From NCBI GenBank assembly GCA_964474205.1, contig CAYYRW010000004.1, forward strand, positions 67,050 to 131,049: DNA of 64,000 bases. The letters are read 5' to 3'. Positions 51,317-63,432 of this stretch are shown here, one piece after another. The notes beneath the pieces are model-generated. The model did not search any database. It worked only from the letters and a program-made list of their open reading frames with translations, and was not told the origin of the DNA. Origin of the DNA: an uncultured Nitrospirales bacterium (GTDB taxonomy: Bacteria > Hydrogenedentota > Hydrogenedentia > Hydrogenedentales > CAILVY01). Each line of letters begins with the position of its first letter. Positions within the stretch are counted from its first letter, which is position 1. The position numbers and the translations under genes were made by a program.

Positions 51317-54300
51317 ATGCATAAATGGCCGTTTGGTGCAATGCTTGTTTTATGGGCGCTGTGCAATGGTTTTTTTCCGGGGCTGGCCCCGTCCGCACTC
51401 GGGGAAGAAAACGCAGACCTTTCGTCCCTGTATGTTCGGGAATCGTCCTGGCAAAGTACCATGCAGACTGCGCGGGAACGGTATCAGGCATGGCGGGCGG
51501 AACAATTGGGCGGAGCGGACATTGCCTTTGGGACTTGGTATGTAACGAGCCCGTTCAAGATTGCCGCCTCTTCGGAAGCTTTTCCCCCGGAACAAACCAT
51601 TGATGTCAACGCCACAACGCCTGACGGAAAACCCCTCTGGACGATTCGAAATGACTTTGTGGATGGCGCGGTGCATTCTCTGCCGGGCGACAATCTTGCC
51701 GCCGTGTATCTGACGCGCACCCTCACCACTCCAAAGCCTCTGACAATCAACGTTGGCCTGGGCGGCGATGATAACCTGACGCTCTGGCTCAATGGGGCCA
51801 AGGTGACCACCACGGATGTCCGGCCCGGCGCCTCACAGGATGCCGCCACCGCAAGGCTTGCCCTGAATGAAGGCGAGAACCGGCTGGTGTTGAAGGTCTA
51901 CAACCTGACGGGGTCCTGTGCGTTCTATTTCTCCATTCAGAATGATCCGGTGATGACGCTCTGGAACCGGATCAAACAAGACTTCCCGATGGAAACCGGC
52001 TGGGTGGAGCGTGATGCGCCGGACGAGCGGTATGTGGAATGGTTTTCGCTTCCGGACAACAAGAGCGCCCAGGAAGCTTTGCTCACACAGGTTCTGCGTG
52101 ACAGTGGCGAGGCCGGTGAACCCTTGCGAAAAGAACTGGTTGAGCTCGGAAAGGTGCCCGCCCAAGATAAGCAATGGCTGGACTTCTATGTCAAGGCCTG
52201 CACGTTTCGCCAGGGCATGGCGGAACTCGCCCAAGTCAATTTCCCGGCCTTGCGGCTTGCGGTTCAGGATCTGGCGGCCACGTTCCCGGACCGTTACACA
52301 AAATCCAAAAAGTTGCTCGCACACCTCGACGACTATGAAAAAAGAATCCCCAAGATTCAGCAGCACCTTGCAGAAGGCGATGATAAAGGCCTGAAACAAG
52401 TCGAAGAAATTCTTGCGCTCCAATACGAGGCGCTTGGGACCAACCCGCTGCTGGACTTCGACAAACTGCTCCTGGTTAAGCGCGCGGAAGGCAATCTGGG
52501 GTTGCCGCAAAACTGGCAGGGCAACTGTGCCATAGCTTCCGCGGGATATGACAATGAAATCGCCGTGCTCTCCCCCGTCAGCGCCGGGGGCATGCTGACC
52601 ACCTTCTTCAAGCCGGAGAAAGGCGCCTTCGCCGGGGACCTCGATTTGAATTTCGACGCGGACAAAATTCTCTTCTCCATGCCCGGCGCGAACAACCGCT
52701 GGCAGATTTGGGAAATCCAGGCGGATGGCTCCGGGCTGCGCCAGGTCACCCCCGGAGAAGAACCGGACGTGGACAATTACGATCCCTGCTATTTGCCGGA
52801 TGGCCGCATCATTTTCGCGTCCACCCGATGCTTTCAGGGCATTCCCTGCGTGGGCGGCGGGAATACCGTGGCCAACCTGTGCCGCATGGATGCGGATGGA
52901 AAGAACACCCGCCAGCTTTGTTTTGACCAGGACCACAACTGGTGCCCCACGGTGCTCAATAACGGGCGGGTCATGTTTTCGCGCTGGGAATACTCGGACA
53001 CCCCGCACTATTTCAGCCGCCTCTTGTTCAACATGAATCCCGACGGCACAAACCAGAGCGAGTATTACGGCAGCAATTCCTTCTGGCCGAATTCCATCTT
53101 TTACGCCCGGCCCATTCCCGGAAACCCCACACAGGTCGTAGCCATTATCTCAGGGCATCACGGGGTTCCACGCATGGGCGAACTCATTATCCTGGATCCC
53201 GCCAAGGGACGCTTCGAGGCGGATGGTGTGGTGCAGCGCATTCCCGGGCACAATAAAGCGGTCGAGCCCGTTATCATGGACACGCTCGTGGACGGCGTAT
53301 GGCCCAAGTTCCTGCATCCGTATCCGCTGAGCGACAAGTATTTCCTCGTTTCGTGCAAGCCCACCCCGGATTCCCTGTGGGGCATTTATCTGGTGGATGT
53401 TTTCGACAACCGTCTTCGCTTGTGTGAAGTTCCCGGATACGCCCTGCTGGAGCCGGTTCCCTTCCGCAAAACGCAGCGTCCGGCCGTCATTCCCGACACC
53501 GTGAAGCTCGACCGGACGGACGCCACGGTCTATCTCACGGACGTCTATCGCGGCCAGGGATTACAGGGGGTTCCGCGCGGCACCGTCAAATCATTGCGCG
53601 TGTTTGAGATTTATTACACCTATCCCCAGATGGGCGGGCACATCAACATCGGCGTCGAAGGCCCGTGGGATGTGCACCGCATCCTGGGCACGGTCCCGGT
53701 GTACGAAGACGGTTCCGCATATTTCAAAATTCCGGCGAATATCCCCGTGGCGGTGCAGCCGTTGGATGACCAAGGCCGGGCCGTCCAAATCATGCGGAGT
53801 TGGTTTGTGGGCATGCCCGGCGAATCGGTATCGTGCGTGGGATGCCACGAGCAACAGAACATGACGCCGCCTTCCATCCCGACCCTTGCCGCGCGCCGCG
53901 CGCCGGTGGACATTACGCCGTGGAAAGGCCCTGCGCGGGGGTTCAGCTTCAAACGCGATGTGCAGCCGGCGCTCGATACGTTCTGCGTCGGCTGTCACAA
54001 TGGCGCGGGGGAGAACAAAATTCCCGACTTTTCGTCCAAGGATAAACAAGGCCAGAATAATTTTACGCCGTCTTATCTGGCTTTGCATCCCTATGTGCGC
54101 CGCCCGGGGCCTGAGAGCGACTATCACATTCAGAAACCTTTAGAATTCCATGCAAGCACCAGTCCGCTCATCCAGATGCTGGAGAAAGGACATCATGGGG
54201 TGAAGCTCGATTCGGATGCCTGGGACCGTCTGTATACCTGGATCGACCTTAACGTTCCGGATCATGGAACCTGGGGCGAGCACCGCGCCATCCCGGGCGA

Positions 54301-55348
54301 TTTCCATCAACGGCGCTTGGAGATGCGTACAAAGTATGCCAACCGGCCCGAAGATCCGGAAGCCATCCCCGATCTCAAACTGCCCCCGGCTGTGTTCGTC
54401 AAACCCGAGCCTCCCGCCGTCCCCGCGCAACAAGACGTGACCTGCGAAGGCTGGCCATTCGACGGACGCACGGCAGCGGCCTCCCAGCAGCGCCGGACTG
54501 TGGATCTCGGCAATGGCGTCGTGCTTGAGTTTGTGTTGATCCCGCAGGGTGAATTTATCATGGGCGGCAAAGACGGATGCGCCGACGAACAACCGCGCAC
54601 CCGCGTTAAGATTGATAAGCCGTTCTGGATGGCCGTAACTGAAATTACAAATGCGCAATACGCACAGTTTGATCCGAAGCATGAAAGCGGTGTCATTGAT
54701 CAGCATAACAAGGATCACACAACGCGTGGCTATCCGGCCCAGGCCCCCAAGAATCCCGTCATTCGCATTTCCTGGAATGAAGCCATGGCCTTCTGCCAGT
54801 GGCTGTCCCAGAAAACCGGTGAAGCCTGCGCGCTGCCGACCGAAGCCCAATGGGAATGGGCCTGCCGCGCCGGGACGGATACGCCCTTGTGGTACGGTAA
54901 CCTGGATTCCGATTTCTCCGCCTGCGCCAATCTCGCGGACAAGTCGATCCAGCGGCTCGCCGTCGCAGGGATTAATCCACAGCCCATCGAGAACCCCAGC
55001 CCCTTCGATGATTTCCTGCCCAAGGAGCCTCGCTTCAATGATGGCGAACGGATTGTAACCGAGACCGGAAAATACCAGCCCAACCCCTGGGGATTATTCG
55101 ACATGCACGGCAACGTGGCCGAGTGGACCCTTTCCACCTTCCGAGCCTATCCCTATGTGCCTTCGGATGGCCGTGACGATCCCAAAACGCCGGGCAAAAA
55201 GGTGGTTCGTGGCGGTTCCTGGTTCGACCGGCCCCAAACCGCCCGCTCCGCCTACCGCCTCGCCTACGAACCCTGGCAGCCGGTGTATAACGTCGGTTTC
55301 CGGGTGATCTGCCCCGTGAACGACGCCGCTAAAATCGCCCAGAAATAA
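51317..55348 (+). CDS. Giant secreted multidomain protein: PA14-like + TolB-like beta-propeller + di-heme c-type segment + C-terminal FGE/SUMF1-like domain
   Basis: Signal peptide. The PA14-like block is INVGLGGDDNLTLWLNGAKV. Propeller-like repeats include DPCYLPDGRIIFAST and CPTVLNNGRVMFSRWEY. Two CxxCH motifs are CVGCHEQQ and CVGCHNGAG. The C-terminal FGE-like domain carries GEFIMGG...PxxxV, WNEAMAFCQWLSQ, HGNVAEW and RGGSW. Confidence 0.85.
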   Translation: MHKWPFGAMLVLWALCNGFFPGLAPSALGEENADLSSLYVRESSWQSTMQTARERYQAWRAEQLGGADIAFGTWYVTSPFKIAASSEAFPPEQTIDVNATTPDGKPLWTIRNDFVDGAVHSLPGDNLAAVYLTRTLTTPKPLTINVGLGGDDNLTLWLNGAKVTTTDVRPGASQDAATARLALNEGENRLVLKVYNLTGSCAFYFSIQNDPVMTLWNRIKQDFPMETGWVERDAPDERYVEWFSLPDNKSAQEALLTQVLRDSGEAGEPLRKELVELGKVPAQDKQWLDFYVKACTFRQGMAELAQVNFPALRLAVQDLAATFPDRYTKSKKLLAHLDDYEKRIPKIQQHLAEGDDKGLKQVEEILALQYEALGTNPLLDFDKLLLVKRAEGNLGLPQNWQGNCAIASAGYDNEIAVLSPVSAGGMLTTFFKPEKGAFAGDLDLNFDADKILFSMPGANNRWQIWEIQADGSGLRQVTPGEEPDVDNYDPCYLPDGRIIFASTRCFQGIPCVGGGNTVANLCRMDADGKNTRQLCFDQDHNWCPTVLNNGRVMFSRWEYSDTPHYFSRLLFNMNPDGTNQSEYYGSNSFWPNSIFYARPIPGNPTQVVAIISGHHGVPRMGELIILDPAKGRFEADGVVQRIPGHNKAVEPVIMDTLVDGVWPKFLHPYPLSDKYFLVSCKPTPDSLWGIYLVDVFDNRLRLCEVPGYALLEPVPFRKTQRPAVIPDTVKLDRTDATVYLTDVYRGQGLQGVPRGTVKSLRVFEIYYTYPQMGGHINIGVEGPWDVHRILGTVPVYEDGSAYFKIPANIPVAVQPLDDQGRAVQIMRSWFVGMPGESVSCVGCHEQQNMTPPSIPTLAARRAPVDITPWKGPARGFSFKRDVQPALDTFCVGCHNGAGENKIPDFSSKDKQGQNNFTPSYLALHPYVRRPGPESDYHIQKPLEFHASTSPLIQMLEKGHHGVKLDSDAWDRLYTWIDLNVPDHGTWGEHRAIPGDFHQRRLEMRTKYANRPEDPEAIPDLKLPPAVFVKPEPPAVPAQQDVTCEGWPFDGRTAAASQQRRTVDLGNGVVLEFVLIPQGEFIMGGKDGCADEQPRTRVKIDKPFWMAVTEITNAQYAQFDPKHESGVIDQHNKDHTTRGYPAQAPKNPVIRISWNEAMAFCQWLSQKTGEACALPTEAQWEWACRAGTDTPLWYGNLDSDFSACANLADKSIQRLAVAGINPQPIENPSPFDDFLPKEPRFNDGERIVTETGKYQPNPWGLFDMHGNVAEWTLSTFRAYPYVPSDGRDDPKTPGKKVVRGGSWFDRPQTARSAYRLAYEPWQPVYNVGFRVICPVNDAAKIAQK

Positions 55349-55459
55349 ATCCCTGAGCTTCAGCATGCTTGGCGCCCCCTGTGGTGGCAAGTATTTTTCC
55401 CATGTGGTTCGTGGTGTATTATTAAAAGGGGTCTTTTTGTTCCGGGGACCCACACAATG

Positions 55460-55681
55460 TTAATTATGTGTTTGTGATTTTTCCGAAATCCTAATATCCG
55501 GATTTCCAATCTCAAGTTGTTTTCTTATTAGTATGCACAGACTATTCGGCAATTCACCATGGCGGGGCACCGGCGCTTTTCGCTGTGTGCGTGGATTTTT
55601 GTAAATGTCATGGTTGGCTCCTCTGCGAAGAAGTACACACCCCGCCCTCTTGAGTTCCTGTATAAATTCCGTCCGCTTCAC
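55460..55681 (-). CDS. hicA: HicA-family mRNA-interferase toxin
   Basis: VKRTEFIQELKRAGCVLLRRGANHDIYKNPRTQRKAPVPRHG-ELP matches the HicA dsRBD-like toxin. GTG start overlaps the hicB stop (GTGA). Confidence 0.75.
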   Translation of the reverse strand: MKRTEFIQELKRAGCVLLRRGANHDIYKNPRTQRKAPVPRHGELPNSLCILIRKQLEIGNPDIRISEKSQTHN

Positions 55682-55884
55682 ACGTGAAGAACCAGTTCTT
55701 TGATACAGATATCGGCGCCTGAAGGACCTTCCTCGTCCATCATCATCAGTTCGTAGGCTTCTTGAATGTTGTGTTCCAGTTCTTCCAGGGTTTCTCCCTG
55801 TGAGAAAACACCCGGCACTTCCTTGAGGCGGCCCACGTACCAACCTTCATCTTTCCAATACTCAAGGGCAAATGTGCGTACCAT
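55678..55884 (-). CDS. hicB: HicB-family (UPF0150-like) antitoxin
   Basis: YWKDEGWYVGRLKEVPGVFSQGETLEELEHNIQEAYELMM matches the HicB N-domain consensus (Y-A-x-PELPG-SQG-T-EEA-N-EA). AGAGGAGA RBS. Confidence 0.75.
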   Translation of the reverse strand: MVRTFALEYWKDEGWYVGRLKEVPGVFSQGETLEELEHNIQEAYELMMMDEEGPSGADICIKELVLHV

Positions 55885-55906
55885 ATCGGAAAATCTCCTC
55901 TATCAG

Positions 55907-56100
55907 GGAGTATACCATATCGCTGTCTGATTCAACGTTAATTTAACGGCGCCGGAGGCCGCCGAGGAGGTCTTGAAATTCGGGGATTTTGAGGGCGTGT
56001 GAAACACCGATAAAGCTGAGGCCGGCCACGGTGATGGCGACGCCAAAGACGGATAGGGGCAGTTGCACTAGGCGGTTGGCGTAAAACAGGGCGGAAATGA
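55907..56100 (-). pseudogene. murJ 3'-end remnant with internal deletion
   Basis: 55907-56037 is about 91% identical to 56782-56912 (murJ C-terminus plus downstream leader). 56038-56100 is about 87% identical to the internal murJ segment 57518-57580. The translated remnant is ...SALFYANRLVQLPLSVFGV-AITVAGLSFIGVSHALKIPEFQDLLGGLRRR*. Confidence 0.7.
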
Positions 56101-56146
56101 AAAATCAACCCCGAAAACAAAGGACTTATAGCGATTCCATAATTAT

Positions 56147-56533
56147 TCACTCTGCGGTTTTATCAACAATGGGTAATCTCCGGACACGAATGGAATCCTG
56201 GCGTATGGCCAAAATGGCTCCTGCTTGAAGCGCTTCGCCACACGTATTCATTGCTTCCTCAAGACGTGGAATTACCGACTCCGCTGTCTCATCATCCAAT
56301 CGAAAAATGATTGTGGATGGCGCCTGCCACCCGCTCTGGGCCAATAAATAGCCAAAATCCAAGTCCATTGTAAGGAGTATCCGGTCCTCATCGCGAGCCT
56401 TTTTCAGAACAAAAGGATCTCTCAATGTCTGAAGTCCTTGTTCCCGGAGATGTATCGCATTGTGATCAGCATTTTTCAGCCATTCGACAACATGCCTGGA
56501 AATCCCCATATCAGCCAAGAAGCGCATATGCAA
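56147..56533 (-). CDS. DUF5615-family PIN-like protein (toxin partner of DUF433)
   Basis: MHMRFLADMGISRHVVEWLKNADHNAIHLREQGL...DEDRILLTMDLDFG matches the DUF5615 consensus (FL-DEN-S-L...G-D..H......SDEEI-A-RIL-T-D-DFG). Confidence 0.75.
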   Translation of the reverse strand: MHMRFLADMGISRHVVEWLKNADHNAIHLREQGLQTLRDPFVLKKARDEDRILLTMDLDFGYLLAQSGWQAPSTIIFRLDDETAESVIPRLEEAMNTCGEALQAGAILAIRQDSIRVRRLPIVDKTAE

Positions 56534-56536
56534 CCT

Positions 56537-56761
56537 CTAACCAACCTGAATTTCGTCCCGTGCGAGCCATGCGGCATATTCTAATGATTGCGAAATGTCC
56601 TCGGGGGTAAGATCTGGATACTCGTCTATGATCTGTTGTGTGCTTTTTCCGTGCGCAACCAGATTGATGATCAAAGAAACAGGAATCCGCATACCTCTGA
56701 TGCAGGCTTGGCCTCGCATGATTTCTGAATCAAATGTTATTCGATTAAACACTGGAAACAC
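56537..56761 (-). CDS. DUF433-family protein (antitoxin-like partner)
   Basis: RITFDSEIMRGQACIRGMRIPVSLIINLVAHGKSTQQIIDEYPDLTPEDISQSLEYAA matches DUF433 (ITxDP-xGGKPCIRGTRIPV...IL-DYP-LT-EDI-AAL-YAA). GTG start with AAAGGAGA RBS. Confidence 0.75.
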   Translation of the reverse strand: MFPVFNRITFDSEIMRGQACIRGMRIPVSLIINLVAHGKSTQQIIDEYPDLTPEDISQSLEYAAWLARDEIQVG

Positions 56762-56781
56762 AGCAAAATCTCCTTTGTCAA

Positions 56782-56912
56782 GGAGTATACCATATTGCTG
56801 TTTGATTCAACCCTGACTTAACGGCGCCGGAGGCCACCGAGGAGGTCTTGGAATTCGGGGATTTTGAGGGCGTGGGAAACGCCGACAAAGCTAAGGCCGG
56901 CCACGGTGATGG
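56782..56912. repeat. Native murJ 3' end plus downstream leader; right copy of the ~131-bp direct repeat
   Basis: About 91% identity to 55907-56037. Homology extends roughly 20 bp further, covering the RBS of the first gene of each TA cassette. Confidence 0.85.
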
Positions 56913-58395
56913 GTATCACCACGTTGATGCCTTGGGTCCAGAGCGCTTGATGGCCGAGGAAATGATCCAGGCGCACATAGACGCCGTAGGTGACCGCGGA
57001 CATTATGGCGGTGGCCGCGATAATCCGTGCAAAGGCGAAGAGCATGTCTTTGTCCCAGAGCATGCCGAACCGGTTGCAGAGCAGAACGTAGAGGAGCAGG
57101 AAGTTGACCGTGTAGGAGAGGGTGGTGGCGAGGGCGAGGCCGCGGAATCCGAGCGGTCCGACGAGCGCGCAGATCAGGAGGATGTTGAGGGCCATGCTGG
57201 CGGTGGCGATGATCACGGGGGTTTTGGTGTTTTGTTCCGCGTAGAATCCCTGAACGCAGACCTTAACCCAGGCGAAGGGGAGGAGGCCGGTGGAGAAAAA
57301 GATCAGGCCGGTGGTGGTCATGTCCGTCATATTGGGGCCGAAATTGCCGTGTTCAAACAAAAAACGAATGACGGGGCGGCCCATGATGATGAGCCCGGCG
57401 GTGGCGGGGAGCATCATAAAGAAGCTGAGGCGCAGGCCATGGGTCAACGTATCGCGAATCACCTCCTGTTTTCCGCGCGCGGCGGCACGGGAGATCTCCG
57501 GGAGGATGGCGACCGCGACGGCGACGCCGAACACGGACAGGGGCAGTTGTACCAGGCGGTTGGCGTAAAACAGGGCGGAGACGACGCCGCTTTCCAGCGA
57601 GTAGGCGAAAAAGCTGTCCACCAGCTTGTTCACTTCGCCCGTAGCCTGCCCTAAAATCACCGGTATGAGCAGCCACACGATTTTTTGGACACCGGGCTGT
57701 TTCAACTTGAAATTCGGCGTGATGACGCCGACATGTTTTTTCATGGCGGCCCACAACACGAGCAGTTGCGCGATGCCGCCCACCCACACGCCCACAGTGA
57801 GCGCCCAAGCCGGGTCCGGAAAGAAGCGGGACAAACCCAAACAGCAGACAATCAGCCCGATGTTCAGGAGCATGGGCGACCAGGACGGGGTGCTGTAATG
57901 CCGTGCGGCGAAGAGCGGCCCCATGGCGAACACCGCCATGCCGATCAAAAACATGTAAGGGAAATTCCATTCGATCAGTTTGACGGTGAATCGCAGGTGT
58001 TCATCGCTCTTGGGGGCGGCATGGGTCAGGGGGCGCAGCAGTTCCAGCAGCCAGGGGATAAACGGTATCAGGAGCAACCCGATCAGGGTGAGCGCGGAAA
58101 ACAAAATCAGCATGCCGGACATCGCGGCGGACACCAAGGCACGGTATTGCTCCGGCGGGTCTTTTTCCTGGCTTTCCGTGAATACCGGCACAAACGCCGC
58201 GTTGGCCGCGCCCTCGCCCAGCATGTCGCGCAGCATGTTGGGGAACCGAAAGGCGAAGAAGAAGGCGTCGCGCGAGGCGTCGGGCACCACATAGCCGATG
58301 ACCATGTCGCGAAACATGCCGAGCACGCGGCTGACCAGCGTACCGCCGGCAAAAATGGCCGTATAGCGGGAAATTTCTTTTTTGGAGGTTTTCAT
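56818..58395 (-). CDS. murJ: Lipid II flippase MurJ
   Basis: 525 aa, 14 TM. N-terminal ...AIFAGGTLVSRVLGMFRDMVIGYV...AFFFAFRFPNMLRDMLGEGAANAAFVPVF is the canonical MurJ/MviN signature. Confidence 0.9.
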   Translation of the reverse strand: MKTSKKEISRYTAIFAGGTLVSRVLGMFRDMVIGYVVPDASRDAFFFAFRFPNMLRDMLGEGAANAAFVPVFTESQEKDPPEQYRALVSAAMSGMLILFSALTLIGLLLIPFIPWLLELLRPLTHAAPKSDEHLRFTVKLIEWNFPYMFLIGMAVFAMGPLFAARHYSTPSWSPMLLNIGLIVCCLGLSRFFPDPAWALTVGVWVGGIAQLLVLWAAMKKHVGVITPNFKLKQPGVQKIVWLLIPVILGQATGEVNKLVDSFFAYSLESGVVSALFYANRLVQLPLSVFGVAVAVAILPEISRAAARGKQEVIRDTLTHGLRLSFFMMLPATAGLIIMGRPVIRFLFEHGNFGPNMTDMTTTGLIFFSTGLLPFAWVKVCVQGFYAEQNTKTPVIIATASMALNILLICALVGPLGFRGLALATTLSYTVNFLLLYVLLCNRFGMLWDKDMLFAFARIIAATAIMSAVTYGVYVRLDHFLGHQALWTQGINVVIPITVAGLSFVGVSHALKIPEFQDLLGGLRRR

Positions 58396-58410: not shown

Positions 58411-60036
58411 CTAGGACCGTTTCTTTGTTGGTTTCCCTTTGGAGGCGGCCTGCGGTTCCGGCGCGGCCGGCGTAGAAAACCCCAGTTTCAAGACTGCACC
58501 CATCACAAACAGGAGCGCCACGCCCAGGCATAACCACGGAAAGATCACCGGCCCGCCGGGAATCGGCCGGTTCGCGGAGGCCGCCACCTTGAGCGCGCCC
58601 ATGCAGCGTTCCATGATGAACATGGCGGGATCTTCAATACGTTCTTTCGGCCATTCGTGATACCGGCCTTGATAGAGCATGGCATTCACGCTTTCAAAGC
58701 GGCCCCAAGGATCAAATACGCCGGAAATGCCGGAATTGGCCACGTGAATCAGCGGCAGCCGGGATTCAATCGCCCGGAAGCGCGCCAACTCTAATTCCTG
58801 CGGGATGGCGTTGCTGCGTCCGAACCAGCCCAGATTCGTCACCACCACCAGGGTATCCGCGCCCATGCGCCGCAGATTCTCGACGAGGGGCGCAAAGAGC
58901 ACCTCGAAACAAATGAGCGGCCCCAAGCGGCGGTTTTCCAAGGTCATTACCTTTTGTTCCGTGCCGGCATCCACGTCAATGGGGGTGATGTGGCGCAGGA
59001 AGGGGAAAATGCTGGAAAAGGGCATGTATTCGCCAAAGGGGGCGAGGTGAACCTTGTCATAATACCCGGCCACCGCGCCTTCCGGCGTCAACAGCAGGCT
59101 GGAATTATAGCTGCGCACCGATCCTTGCACCTCCGCATCGCGCGTGGACCCCGTGAACAGGTGGGCGCCCGTCTGCTTGACTAAATCCGCCATGGGCTGC
59201 ATAAGTTCCGGCGCGGAGTAATCAGACATCACGAGGGCTTCCGGCCAGAAGAAAGATTGGACCGGGTGTTGTTCCGCCAAGGCCTGCGAATGTTCCGCGG
59301 CCTTGACCACCATGTCCCGCGTATAGTCCCGGTCCCATTTCATCTCTTGCGGGAAATTGGATTGAAACAGGCCGGCCGTAAACGGCTTTGACACATAATC
59401 CGCCGGACCCAGCAACATCGAACCGGCCAGGTGCGCGGCGATAACGAGGATAATGGCGGCAACAAGGCGGGTCACGCGCCCGCGCCGCCCGGCTATAGCC
59501 AGTGCGAGCAGCGCGTTAAACGCCACCAACAGGAAGGAAACCGCGGAAACGCCTCCCAGCGCCGCGAATTGCGCCAGCGCGGGGTCTTTGCCCTGGCAAT
59601 AGCCCAGGGCGCTCCAGCCGAAGCCTGAAAAAAGATTGGCCTGGCACCACTCCATCCAAACCCACAGGACGGCGAGGGCTATCGCCCCGGCGAAGGGGGT
59701 TCGTTGACGCGCCCACAGCCAGAGCATGCCCAAACCGGCCCAGAAGAGGGCCAGCGCAATGCAGAGCAGTTGATATCCTATGACGGCCCAGCCGCCGCCC
59801 CAATAGATGTTGCTCATGAGCCATTGCAGCAGAATGCTGTGGAATGCCCAGCCCGCGGCAAAGAAGCATAGGCCCCCGCGCCAGAGGGAGGAGCATTTCA
59901 CCGCCGTGAGAAGGAGCGGGACCAAGGCCACCCACGCCAATACAAAAAGGTGATAGGTGGGAAAGCTCCAGGCCAGGAGCACTCCCGAAACGGGCGGCAA
60001 TATGTATCCGCCATATGCTCGAATGCGTTGTATCAT
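58411..60036 (-). CDS. lnt: Apolipoprotein N-acyltransferase
   Basis: N-terminal 6-7 TM helices, then the CN-hydrolase domain with catalytic-triad context (...ICFEVLF...). Confidence 0.9.
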   Translation of the reverse strand: MIQRIRAYGGYILPPVSGVLLAWSFPTYHLFVLAWVALVPLLLTAVKCSSLWRGGLCFFAAGWAFHSILLQWLMSNIYWGGGWAVIGYQLLCIALALFWAGLGMLWLWARQRTPFAGAIALAVLWVWMEWCQANLFSGFGWSALGYCQGKDPALAQFAALGGVSAVSFLLVAFNALLALAIAGRRGRVTRLVAAIILVIAAHLAGSMLLGPADYVSKPFTAGLFQSNFPQEMKWDRDYTRDMVVKAAEHSQALAEQHPVQSFFWPEALVMSDYSAPELMQPMADLVKQTGAHLFTGSTRDAEVQGSVRSYNSSLLLTPEGAVAGYYDKVHLAPFGEYMPFSSIFPFLRHITPIDVDAGTEQKVMTLENRRLGPLICFEVLFAPLVENLRRMGADTLVVVTNLGWFGRSNAIPQELELARFRAIESRLPLIHVANSGISGVFDPWGRFESVNAMLYQGRYHEWPKERIEDPAMFIMERCMGALKVAASANRPIPGGPVIFPWLCLGVALLFVMGAVLKLGFSTPAAPEPQAASKGKPTKKRS

Positions 60037-60117: not shown

Positions 60118-61278
60118 CTACAATTCGTCCTGCAACATTTTGATCTCTTTCTTGAGATCCTCCTGATGTTTCCATTCACTGCCCTTTTCCCGCCAGAATT
60201 CGAGCGCGCTGCCCGCATCTTCGGTCAGGCTGCGTAAATCCACCACGGTGGGGGACACAAACACGAGCAAATGGCGCACATCGGCCTCCGCCTTGCGTTT
60301 TCGGAAGGCCATGCCCAACACAGGAATTTTCCCGAGGAGCGGAACGCGCCGCTCTTCCTTGGTGACGGTGCGGCTGGAGAGTCCGCCGATGACCAGGGTC
60401 TGTCCGCTGGGCACCACCACAAAGCCGGTTTGCGAGCGTTTGGAGAAAACGGGCAAATCCAGCGCTTTTACCTTGACGGTGGTATTTTCACTTACTTCCA
60501 ATTGTTGCAAATGGAGTTGCACGAAATCATTGGGCAGGATGGTGGGCTGAAGGGCCATGTTCACGCCGACATCGCGCCACGCCATGGCCAGGGCCGGCGC
60601 GCCTTTGGGGTACGTAACGGATTGATAGGGCACCTGCGACCCCGCTTTAATCGTGGCGACGGTGCCATTCACCACCAGAATCTCCGGCTTGGAAATCAAA
60701 TCGAGATCCGTCTTGCTTTCAATAGCGCGAAAAGCGCCTTCCAAGGTGCCTGAGCCAGAAGCAATAATCCCCGCTTCCATGCCGAATCCGCTGGGGACCG
60801 TGCCGGTGCGCAAGGGCGTGGAAGCAACTGTGGGGACGCCCCCCACGCCCGGGGCGAGCGGGGGCGCGGCTGAAGGCGCGGGCAACGTGGCCGTTCCGAA
60901 ATCGTTGGCCGCATTGAACATTTGTGTGCTTACCTGCCGGAGACTGTTATTCTGTTCATTATATTGCTGCGGGTTGGTGGCAAATTCCGCCGGGGTAAAA
61001 CGGGTATAGGAAAGGTTTGCTCCCAGTTTGCGCACGCCGTTTTCGTCCGTTTCGCTGATCCAGACTTGAACCTGAACCTGCCGGATATCCGCAGGCGGCG
61101 GTGGAGGTTCGGGGGCCGCAGGGGCCGCTTCCGGCGCGGGCGCGGGGGCGGGGGCTGGCGCTGCTTCCGGCGCGGGCGCGGGGGCCGGCGCGGGCGGCGG
61201 GGCTTGTGTATTTCCCCATGGCGCCGCCACCAGGAGCAGCACAGCACCCAAGAGAACTATACGCATGCTCCGTTTCAT
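60118..61278 (-). CDS. Secretin-family protein (short, canonical C-terminal secretin domain) with Pro/Ala-rich N-terminal linker
   Basis: Signal peptide. PAPAPAPAPEAAP repeats. Secretin signature ...GQTLVIGGL...VPLLGKIPVLGMAFRKRKAEADVRHLLVFVSPTVV. 4-nt ATGA overlap with the upstream secretin paralog. Confidence 0.8.
   Translation of the reverse strand: MKRSMRIVLLGAVLLLVAAPWGNTQAPPPAPAPAPAPEAAPAPAPAPAPEAAPAAPEPPPPPADIRQVQVQVWISETDENGVRKLGANLSYTRFTPAEFATNPQQYNEQNNSLRQVSTQMFNAANDFGTATLPAPSAAPPLAPGVGGVPTVASTPLRTGTVPSGFGMEAGIIASGSGTLEGAFRAIESKTDLDLISKPEILVVNGTVATIKAGSQVPYQSVTYPKGAPALAMAWRDVGVNMALQPTILPNDFVQLHLQQLEVSENTTVKVKALDLPVFSKRSQTGFVVVPSGQTLVIGGLSSRTVTKEERRVPLLGKIPVLGMAFRKRKAEADVRHLLVFVSPTVVDLRSLTEDAGSALEFWREKGSEWKHQEDLKKEIKMLQDEL
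61127..61198. repeat. In-frame 36-bp tandem repeat x2 encoding the Pro/Ala-rich linker
   Basis: gcttccggcgcgggcgcggggg occurs at 61127 and 61163. Very GC-rich. Confidence 0.8.
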
Positions 61279-62402
61279 TGTTTCTTGTCTCCACCCAGTT
61301 CCGCGGCCACGGGATCCTTTTTCTGATCTCCGGATATGCCATGCACAATGTTTTGCGGGATATCCGTGATGCCGCCAATGACGCCGGTGATGACATCGGA
61401 AGGCGATTTTTTCTTGGACTCTTTTTTGTCCGTTTCTTTATCGCCGGCGTTTTCTTCGGTGAATCCGAAATCATCGGCCACCGTAAACGCGGGCTTCCAC
61501 AATTCGGCTTTGATCAAGAACACCAACTCGCGGCGGATGTCGCGGTTATCCTGTTTTCCCACCGAGGCCGACATGGGCACCTGGGGGACCGTGAACGGCA
61601 TGATCCGCTGCACCAGGCTGTTGGTGAAATCTTCCCCCTGGGCCAGCCAAGGCAGGGTGGAGAGGTCTTTCTGATTCTTCTTGAAATACAGGCCGCCCAA
61701 CACCAGCACTTGGCCGTGGCGCACCCAGACCGTGGTGGTGATGCTCCGGGAAATAAATTCCGGAACTTCGATCGTGCTGCCCCCCATAATAGGGTCAAGG
61801 GCCACGCTCATGGATTGTCCGCGGTCATTCACCGTGGCGGTCAAGGTGAGTTGAATATAGGTGTCTTCCGTGGTGGCCGGATTGCCGTCATCGTCCACCA
61901 CCTTGGTGGCCAGGACGTTCAGCGTGACGCCGGTGGGTTTGAAATTGGTGACGCGCGTGGCGGTCACCCCCACCACCACGATGTCTTCATAGGGGACTTC
62001 TCGGGTGGTTTCGATGATGGTGGGAACGGTTTGGCCCACTTGGACCATCACTTTGGGCTGGGAAAGAATGGAGGCGCGGTTTTGCGACACCAGCGCCTGC
62101 AGGGTAACTTCCATCTGGCCGTAGGCGGTGTAAATGCGGTCGACAAACACGGAGAGCGCGGCGTCCGGGGCGGGGAAGGTGATGTCCGCGCTCTCGATGT
62201 GGCCATTGTGATCGGCGACGCGCCCGTACGGCTGGGGATTGTCCTTATGTTTGAAATAGGCGTTCAAGCCGGTTTCCAGCAGCTTGTTCATTTGGAACTC
62301 AACCACTTTCACCGACACATTCACCTGTTGTTGTTCCTGTGCCGCCGTGAAGGTGGCGCCCGCCAGAAAACTTCCCAGCGCTATGTAAAAAAGCCGTTTC
62401 AT
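61275..62402 (-). CDS. Secretin-family paralog (divergent C-terminal gate/S-region)
   Basis: Signal peptide MKRLFYIALGSFLAGATFTAAQ (ATG 62402; ORF open to 62537). Secretin core SQPKVMVQVGQTVP...ITTTVWVRHGQVLVLGGL. The C-terminal segment lacks the usual IPxLG motif. Confidence 0.75.
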   Translation of the reverse strand: MKRLFYIALGSFLAGATFTAAQEQQQVNVSVKVVEFQMNKLLETGLNAYFKHKDNPQPYGRVADHNGHIESADITFPAPDAALSVFVDRIYTAYGQMEVTLQALVSQNRASILSQPKVMVQVGQTVPTIIETTREVPYEDIVVVGVTATRVTNFKPTGVTLNVLATKVVDDDGNPATTEDTYIQLTLTATVNDRGQSMSVALDPIMGGSTIEVPEFISRSITTTVWVRHGQVLVLGGLYFKKNQKDLSTLPWLAQGEDFTNSLVQRIMPFTVPQVPMSASVGKQDNRDIRRELVFLIKAELWKPAFTVADDFGFTEENAGDKETDKKESKKKSPSDVITGVIGGITDIPQNIVHGISGDQKKDPVAAELGGDKKQ

Positions 62403-62406
62403 GCGG

Positions 62407-63432
62407 TTACCGTTGGAACGTGCCGAGGCATTCATAGCGTTCCACGTTGTCAATGGTGTCAAAATTGGTGAACCGTGCGCTGAACGGGCGCTTTTCGCCC
62501 GGCTGCATCCGGCCCACCGCGAACGTTTGCGTGTCATAAATCATGTTGCCAAAGCCGTAGATGGTGATGATCACCTGGACGTTGCTCAAGGCCTCCTGCC
62601 CCCGGTTCACTACTTCGCCCGTGACGTTATAGGTGGTGTCCTTGAGCGAACTGTTGGTCCATGAGCCAAAGCGTCCGCTGCGGAACGACCGGGTGTTGTA
62701 CACCACCACGGGATTCTGTTCGGCGAAGCGCCGTTCCACTTCCGCGGGCGTCAGGACCGTGAACGAGCCGTCCGGTTCGCGTTCCATCCGGTTTCGGATG
62801 GTGGCGTCGGAAACCAGTTGTGGCCATTGCTGAAGAATTTGTCTATACACCTCACCCGCTTCGGCGTACTGGCCGTTCTTCCAATATAAGTCGGCCAGTT
62901 CGAGTTGTTCGGGAAAGGAGTCCGGCGGTTGCTGCCGCGCTTCGGCGATTTTAACCTGCACGGCTTCTTTTTCCGCTTTCGCGCGCGCCGCCTGGTCTTC
63001 GAGTTTTGCCACGTAGTCGCGGCTCATGGCGGCATATTGTCCATCCGGGGCTTTTGCCAGATAGTCCGAAAAGTAATTATGGGCATCGCGGTAACCGCCG
63101 ATCTTGTAATAAGTCAATCCCAGAAAATAGCGTGCCTCAATGCCCGGCTGGGTGCTGGAATTTTTCGAGAGCACCTGCATGAGGCGCGGGATCGCCAGGG
63201 AATATTCGCCCGCCCGCACCATCCGCTGGGCCACGGCCAGTTCCGTATTGGCCGCCCCGGTGTTCAACACGGGATTGTCCTGGATGGGATTGGCCCCCAC
63301 GGCGCGGGTGGAATTGCTGGGGGCCGTGGCGCAGCCCGCGCAAATCAAGGCAAGGCAGCATGCGCCCGCCGCGCGAAATAAATGATAGCCCGTGCTCCGG
63401 CTCACTATCCGCCTGGATTTGACTGAGGTCAT
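62407..63432 (-). CDS. TPR-repeat lipoprotein (pilotin/PilF-like candidate) with extra C-terminal domain
   Basis: Signal peptide plus lipobox-like LALICAGCA. TPR-like helices (ARYFLGLTYYKIGGYRDAHNYFSDYLAKAP, LADLYWKNGQYAEAGEVYRQIL). 4-nt gap to the secretin gene. Confidence 0.65.
   Translation of the reverse strand: MTSVKSRRIVSRSTGYHLFRAAGACCLALICAGCATAPSNSTRAVGANPIQDNPVLNTGAANTELAVAQRMVRAGEYSLAIPRLMQVLSKNSSTQPGIEARYFLGLTYYKIGGYRDAHNYFSDYLAKAPDGQYAAMSRDYVAKLEDQAARAKAEKEAVQVKIAEARQQPPDSFPEQLELADLYWKNGQYAEAGEVYRQILQQWPQLVSDATIRNRMEREPDGSFTVLTPAEVERRFAEQNPVVVYNTRSFRSGRFGSWTNSSLKDTTYNVTGEVVNRGQEALSNVQVIITIYGFGNMIYDTQTFAVGRMQPGEKRPFSARFTNFDTIDNVERYECLGTFQR

Follow-up and report, generated by a model that had tools for sequence, protein, structure and literature searches.

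A displaced murJ tail between two toxin-antitoxin cassettes, the probable scar of an additive recombination

Here we describe the region behind the 3' end of murJ in an uncultured, Hydrogenedentota-like bacterium, as found in a 64-kb stretch of contig CAYYRW010000004.1 (hereafter the window, whose positions are used as coordinates throughout). Two toxin-antitoxin (TA) cassettes, a DUF433-DUF5615 pair and a HicB-HicA pair, lie there one behind the other downstream of murJ, and between them stands a shortened second copy of the end of this gene, the murJ remnant, followed by a second copy of the leader that separates murJ from the first cassette. With a probability that we put at about 0.6, this locus is the scar of a single, homology-anchored and additive recombination between the murJ regions of two sister lineages. 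This reading is carried by the anatomy of the repeat and of its junctions, by the synonymous nature of the changes accumulated in the remnant, and by the empty site of the nearest genome. The movement of chromosomal TA cassettes without mobility genes is poorly documented, and the locus offers a clean and polarisable example of it, with an essential gene apparently rebuilt, a displaced allele kept as a datable scar, and unrelated cassettes placed behind one leader.

Anatomy of the repeat and of its junctions

Gene families were assigned by Pfam with curated cut-offs, and all features are on the minus strand unless stated otherwise. From 5' to 3', the order is lnt, murJ, leader 1, DUF433, DUF5615, spacer, murJ remnant, leader 2, hicB-like and hicA. 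The intact murJ, which is the anchor gene of the locus (58395..56818; Pfam MurJ E=5.6e-105), encodes 525 aa, has the same number of codons as its relatives, and aligns to them without gaps. After leader copy 1 (56762..56817, 56 nt, read directly from the sequence) come the DUF433 antitoxin gene (56761..56537) and the DUF5615 toxin gene (56527..56147), followed by a spacer of 52-53 nt (56095..56146), which runs from the DUF5615 stop to the remnant, ends at the junction termed J1, and is similar to nothing else among the sequences compared. The remnant itself (56094..55943, 152 nt), whose translation gives a weak Pfam match to MurJ (E=3e-4), is followed by leader copy 2 (55885..55942), the HicB-like antitoxin gene (55884..55678) and the hicA toxin gene (55681..55460).

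The repeat of tail plus leader, 55890-56037 versus 56765-56912, is identical at 133 of 148 positions (90%; blastn E=4e-46), the coding tail contributing 89/95 and the aligned part of the leader 44/53. The original prediction had noticed this repeat over a shorter interval, in which 119 of 131 positions agree (90.8%), and it had also proposed that the homology continues towards the start codons. This is indeed the case: it ends 3 nt before the GTG of DUF433 and 5 nt before the ATG of hicB. What precedes the second tail is an internal piece of murJ, as likewise predicted, with positions 56038-56094 matching 57522-57578 (52/57) at a start-to-start spacing of 1,484 nt. The remnant can be translated in frame as SALFYANRLVQLPLSVFGVA fused to ITVAGLSFIGVSHALKIPEFQDLLGGLRRR and a stop; codons 273-292 of murJ are joined in frame to codons 496-525, and the remnant therefore records an in-frame deletion of 609 nt (203 codons).

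At its 5' junction the remnant starts some 760 nt into murJ, with a microhomology of 1 nt at J1; at each of the two novel junctions, the sequence in common with the partner amounts to 1-5 nt, 9 nt at most. Because of such small microhomologies, and because the 5' junction falls so deep within murJ, these features point to illegitimate joining and not to an att site. No third copy of the tail or of the leader is found after hicA, and the locus thus records a single duplication event. Accordingly, the proposal of serial insertions at murJ is not borne out. Similarly, the view that each cassette is preceded by a duplicated tail holds in that there are two copies of tail plus leader, but one of them is the real end of murJ and the other a remnant.

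Strain mixtures are common in metagenomic data, and the locus might be suspected of being an assembly chimera of co-existing strains with different cassettes after murJ. This explanation is extremely improbable. The 3.2-kb region has the same sequence, base for base, in two separate assemblies, one by JGI and one by Logan, and a 259-kb contig from NCBI is also listed in the protein cluster. Moreover, an assembler could not have created the novel junctions, because the k-mers used in assembly are far longer than the stretches shared there. In their gene calls, JGI and Logan match the layout given above with the exception of hicA, which neither of them calls; the gene, which in the window begins with a GTG overlapping the hicB stop, is also uncalled in several homologous loci (L014-L017, L031-L034), and metagenome annotations may often miss hicA genes of this type.

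Origin of the remnant and related murJ loci

To polarise the coding differences between the remnant and the murJ of the window, we used as outgroups the murJ loci of the nearest genome, L001, and of a further relative, L002. Eleven differences were assigned, five of them specific to the remnant and six to murJ. All five remnant-specific changes are synonymous, while those specific to murJ comprise five synonymous changes and one I-to-V replacement. Under random mutation the expected synonymous fraction at these codons is 0.28-0.32, which leads to P(5/5)=0.002-0.003. Because its changes are synonymous without exception, the remnant diverged under purifying selection, inside a working murJ. Furthermore, the remnant is 93.7% and 91.7% identical to the murJ of the window, compared with 85.7% and 90.6% for L001, and this greater closeness therefore argues for an origin in a sister lineage and for a recent pseudogene. 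On the evidence of its substitutions, the remnant is a xenologous murJ allele from a sister lineage.

These results bear on the simplest alternative, namely, that a unit of 1,484 bp, made up of the murJ 3' part, the leader, DUF433/DUF5615 and the spacer, was duplicated in tandem and in place, diverged for a long time, suffered the internal deletion, and had its second DUF433/DUF5615 replaced by hicBA. Tandem duplications are common, and from start to start the internal piece is offset by exactly 1,484 nt, the length of one unit. However, at least three further events are needed, one of them an exact exchange of the coding sequences that follow the leader, and in a dead copy mostly non-synonymous changes would be expected, in contrast with what is recorded. 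The synonymous-only pattern therefore speaks for recombination between diverged alleles, not for an old tandem duplication that decays in place, and we consider the latter to be very improbable.

Related murJ loci were compared at the same site. The contig of L001 (CAYXPO010000088.1) is 91% identical at the nucleotide level and syntenic for 5.6 kb upstream of murJ, and its site is empty of TA genes, since behind the stop of murJ come just the initial 20 nt of the leader and then a convergent gene. L002 and L003 are 82% identical across murJ, and here, as in L004, L005, L009 and L010, murJ has other neighbours. In none of the six related loci (L001, L002/L003, L004, L005, L009 and L010) was a TA cassette found after murJ, nor was a single-module state, of either the donor or the recipient kind, seen in any of them. 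The notion that the murJ 3' end is an integration hotspot, as raised by the original prediction, thus finds no backing in this comparison, although the site is a synteny breakpoint: the downstream gene differs between the window, L001 and L002, while lnt-murJ and the genes upstream are conserved.

As a separate observation, the record of L001 is titled 'uncultured Nitrospirales', while the other relatives of the window are labelled Hydrogenedentota. The L001 contig is probably mis-binned or mislabelled.

A proposed homology-anchored addition and its parallels

The events that could have produced the locus would be as follows. Two sister lineages, about 7% diverged in coding sequence, would have carried different TA operons behind the same murJ leader. 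Incoming DNA consisting of the 3' part of murJ, the leader, DUF433/DUF5615 and some 53 nt would have crossed over homologously within the resident murJ, and its far end would have joined illegitimately to the resident gene at about codon 272, that is, by homology-facilitated illegitimate recombination; a Campbell-type single crossover of a circle of 1,484 bp would be an equivalent route. As a result, a complete murJ would have been rebuilt, possibly with a donor-derived 3' part, and the resident murJ 3' part, leader and hicBA would have been displaced downstream, after which the in-frame deletion of 609 nt would have shortened the displaced copy to 152 nt. Transcription of both TA operons would now start in the duplicated leader or run on from murJ. 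We infer that only additive outcomes would be viable, because the loss of an antitoxin or of its promoter would be lethal and murJ is essential. Likewise inferred are the polarity of the event and its precise recombination route, the contribution of TA addiction, and the activity of the leader as a promoter.

This proposal of a single additive event agrees with the part of the original prediction that invoked a homology-driven insertion regenerating the end of the gene, which fits both the xenologous remnant, with its five synonymous changes out of five, and a junction of 1-nt microhomology some 760 nt into murJ. It is further supported by the low guanine-cytosine content of the TA region (47% versus 58-60% in the surroundings), by the distant homologues of the cassettes in several phyla and gene contexts, and by the empty site of L001.

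Processes of this kind have been described elsewhere. Homology-facilitated illegitimate recombination is known from transformation (de Vries & Wackernagel 2002; Prudhomme et al. 2002; Meier & Wackernagel 2003, as cited in PMC5361080) and from conjugation (PMC3240628). As in these systems, the locus has one homologous anchor and one junction of low microhomology, and lacks a mobile-element enzyme; unlike in the experiments, where recipient DNA beside the anchor is usually deleted, the homologous segment of the recipient is kept here, which leads to a duplication. A closer parallel is provided by the arrays of displaced C-termini and orphan modules found at Rhs, CdiA and type VI secretion loci (Jackson et al. 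2009; Kirchberger et al. 2017, PMC5361080). For Rhs and the effector-immunity arrays of type VI secretion, a 'displacement' model has been put forward and attributed to homology-facilitated illegitimate recombination (PMC5361080). The murJ locus resembles them in its module order, in a displaced fragment that comes from a diverged functional allele, and in the 1-nt microhomology at J1. In both cases an intact 5' anchor gene adjoins the new module, while the older module lies downstream behind a 3' fragment of the anchor; no recombinase is involved, joining is homologous on one side and illegitimate on the other, and an 'addictive' protective gene is retained. There are also differences. First, the anchor gene murJ has an essential housekeeping function, and its tail is neither polymorphic nor part of the toxin. 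Second, the modules are autonomous type II TA operons and not C-terminal toxin tips with immunity genes. Third, the repeat also takes in the non-coding leader as far as the ribosome-binding site, and there was one displacement only. What we describe is thus most likely a known kind of recombination event that is not usually noted for TA cassettes, and the single murJ locus, taken alone, is an ordinary recombination scar.

Two loci of an unrelated organism carry DUF433-DUF5615 in a comparable setting. In L012 (1976-4366) the order is A, GNAT, A', DUF433-DUF5615 and an insertion sequence; in L019 (1-2326) it is DUF2442, A', DUF433-DUF5615, A'' (frameshifted), a methyltransferase and A''' (frameshifted). 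Gene A encodes an unannotated protein of 389 aa with no Pfam match, and its last 24-60 codons are duplicated in two or three copies, which have different 5' ends, two of them also sharing about 45 nt of flank after the stop. The inner unit of A' and DUF433-DUF5615 is common to both loci (79% identical) and the upstream cassette differs, which is what serial addition beside the anchor gene predicts. Judged by their gene order and tail copies, L012 and L019 show the murJ pattern repeated in series, in an organism unrelated to that of the window.

These loci help to weigh a reading in which the same recombination had the opposite polarity. Here, the resident would have been murJ-leader-DUF433/DUF5615, and the incoming DNA would have brought a second murJ allele from codon 272 onwards together with its leader, hicBA and downstream DNA, with the convergent gene downstream, which encodes 1343 aa, as the anchor, and with the murJ end joined illegitimately 53 nt past DUF5615. 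This would be a classic one-sided homology-facilitated illegitimate recombination that needs no duplication step. In addition, the first 20 nt of leader copy 1 are nearer to those of L001 (two differences, versus seven for copy 2), because of which the murJ-proximal copy looks vertically inherited. In L012 and L019, however, the shared and presumably older cassette is distal, and the lineage-specific cassettes are on the side of the anchor gene. We therefore regard the opposite polarity as unlikely.

A different route would be site-specific accretion, with DUF433/DUF5615 as an integrase-less satellite, similar to a cis-mobilisable element, that was inserted in trans by a recombinase targeting the murJ 3' end and carried its own copy of that end. 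Integrative elements and their integrase-less, cis-mobilisable derivatives accrete in tandem at tRNA genes or at fda, as in Streptococcus thermophilus, by means of a tyrosine integrase and of short identical att cores with fixed boundaries. As in such arrays, which can grow, the target 3' end in the window is regenerated intact and the displaced end lies at the far side of the insert. The heptamer GTTGAAT of the leader also fits the loose integron core GTTRRRY, for which the chance expectation is about 5% per strand. A perfect direct repeat of 37 nt, moreover, flanks DUF433-DUF5615 in L021 (2602-2638 and 3542-3578), and equally in L022-L030; one of its copies lies within the last ~22 codons of a convergent Proton_antipo_M (nuoN-like) gene, and this repeat, derived from the tail of a neighbour, could be an att-like core. 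As a side note, the cassette of L021-L030 adjoins an RHH_1 gene followed by an open reading frame (ORF) of 71 aa, which may be a putative truncated PIN toxin.

Unlike in tRNA or fda accretion, however, the window holds neither a tyrosine integrase nor fixed att cores. A Pfam scan of 40 picked ORFs of at least 120 aa across the 64 kb returned no integrase, recombinase or transposase family, and the 13-kb gene tables around the locus (JGI, Logan) list no recombinase. Identical att cores with fixed boundaries were not found between the two copies, which are 90% identical and show no clear boundary of an identical core. The displaced copy starts about 760 nt into murJ, the tail copies of L012 and L019 differ in their 5' ends, and none of the six related murJ loci is occupied. 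Finally, no attC-like palindrome was detected behind either cassette, whether in the spacer that follows DUF5615 or in the 111 nt beyond hicA, nor is any sequence common to the regions behind both. With no integrase family among the scanned ORFs and no attC-like site, an integron cassette array is not supported, and neither is the site-specific or integron-like array of the original prediction; the satellite version of site-specific accretion we judge to be quite improbable.

Several points weigh against a single additive event with the polarity that we prefer. First, the donor lineage, with murJ, leader and DUF433/DUF5615, is unobserved, and the sliding identity to L001 (0.86-0.95) shows no breakpoint step within murJ. 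Second, both cassettes start within 3-8 nt of the end of the shared leader, which demands two different TA operons placed behind the same leader in sister lineages, a precision that is unexplained. Third, homology-facilitated illegitimate recombination usually deletes recipient DNA instead of duplicating it. Fourth, the preferred polarity leans on the analogy with L012 and L019, and the uptake of DNA by the host, through natural competence or otherwise, is an assumption of the scheme. Lastly, as to the leader, a consensus scan flagged no sigma-70 promoter in it, and its two copies show no significant RNA fold (z-scores of -0.86 and +0.63 versus shuffled sequence).

Beyond murJ, tail duplication was seen in three of five independent contexts of DUF433/DUF5615 (murJ in the window, L012/L019 and L021), in a sample that is small and was not chosen blind, and in none of three other contexts of HicB. 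This hints at a pattern, and is a lead and not a result. It is tempting to speculate that integrase-less TA cassettes, DUF433/DUF5615 especially, spread by a tail-anchored accretion in which they travel with a copy of the 3' end of a conserved neighbour, although we hold this generalisation to be rather doubtful. Under such a process, host recombination would place the cassette into the same gene of a new genome, and, loss of an antitoxin being lethal, it would be added to a resident cassette without replacing it, leaving arrays punctuated by copies of gene tails. If the pattern were general, gene-tail remnants could serve as a genomic marker of the order in which cassettes were acquired and of recombination between diverged strains, and they would also bear on the idea that addiction modules force accretion, and not replacement, at hotspots.

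The two cassettes, the shared leader and the neighbouring genes

All four TA proteins score above the curated Pfam cut-offs. The DUF433 (COG2442) antitoxin gene has a GTG start and encodes 74 aa (E=4.9e-23), a call that is shared by JGI and a length that is shared by its homologues. It is directly upstream of the DUF5615 toxin gene, which encodes a PIN-like protein of 126 aa (E=1.3e-22), with an intergenic gap of 9 nt. D37, D55 and D57 do not vary among 17 homologues of this toxin, including the protein of the window, and E47 is conserved as well; these residues probably form its catalytic site. In the second cassette, the HicB-like antitoxin (68 aa) matches UPF0150 with 29.8 bits for a cut-off of 27.3, and scores below the cut-off of the HicB_lk profile. 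The hicA gene (73 aa) matches HicA_toxin PF07927 (E=9.3e-9; 35.7 bits for a cut-off of 27) over profile positions 3-58 of 58, and its GTG start and the stop of hicB overlap in GTGA, an arrangement of translational coupling. Many HicB proteins, not all, have a C-terminal DNA-binding domain for autoregulation. By Pfam, the protein of the window has no second domain, and hence lacks this one; its homologues number more than 2000, and most of them have 68 aa.

The original prediction had called the two cassettes classical type II pairs, and the domains are confirmed by Pfam, but DUF433/DUF5615 is a predicted PIN-COG2442 pair and as such not quite classical. One relative of this pair has been validated by experiment, namely, the Synechocystis system VapBC10, in which the antitoxin binds to its own promoter at an inverted repeat (PMC3834315). 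The cassettes of the window share with VapBC10 and the HicAB systems their domains and the order of their genes, which are closely spaced or overlap, and also have an inverted repeat in the region of the promoter. A difference is that this HicB is without a DNA-binding domain. Also, two unrelated antitoxins could not both have the one leader as their specific operator.

The pairing of DUF433 with DUF5615 was seen in five other contexts. The closest homologues of the TA proteins, with best matches of 73-78% amino acid identity, are spread over several phyla (KSB1, Zixiibacteriota, Thermodesulfovibrionales, cyanobacteria and others) in unrelated gene contexts. At the DNA level the similarity to homologous cassettes is about 70% and confined to coding sequences, and a near-identical copy of either cassette, sought elsewhere in order to delimit the mobile unit, was not found. 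By family membership and distribution, both cassettes are ordinary, horizontally mobile TA families, with toxicity and neutralisation as predicted activities.

The shared leader reads GTTGAATCARACAGCRATATGGTATACTCC...GGAGATTTT. In copy 1, a promoter-like arrangement, TTGAAT-15 nt-TGgTATACT, can be read by eye. In the same copy, the inverted repeat CTCCTTGACAAAGGAG takes in the ribosome-binding site and has ATTTT behind it, and the resulting hairpin is terminator-like by scan. The inverted repeat is CTCCTT-GACA-AAGGAG in copy 1 (56770-56785, minus strand) and CTCCCT-GATA-GAGGAG in copy 2 (55895-55910, minus strand), with the ribosome-binding site in the 3' arm; the copies differ in both arms, and not in a cleanly compensatory manner. 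This element could be a weak terminator of murJ, a hairpin that masks the ribosome-binding site, or a protein operator. A structured RNA or riboswitch, on the other hand, was rejected on the lack of any Rfam match at E<=1 and on the fold z-scores.

Other identities of the leader were discarded as well. A 31-nt leader pattern occurs exactly twice in the window, versus zero occurrences expected. Viral contigs hold no copy of the leader, and plasmids none of the region, and within these collections and the window the leader finds no support as a repeated or mobile element. A relationship to the native leaders of DUF433 homologues was rejected as marginal, with 16/24 matches to L012 and weaker ones elsewhere.

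Around the cassettes, 111 nt of intergenic sequence (55349..55459), without a murJ or leader copy, separate hicA from the gene of the 1343-aa protein. The latter (51317-55348, plus strand), which is convergent with the TA cassettes, has a middle domain of the hydrazine synthase alpha family (HZS_alpha) and a C-terminal FGE-sulfatase domain. On the other side, lnt (60036..58411) is upstream of murJ. An antisense ORF at 61101-62471, included in the greedy ORF list, is probably spurious, and upstream of lnt there are two tandem secretin genes of 386 aa each (60118-62440, minus strand).

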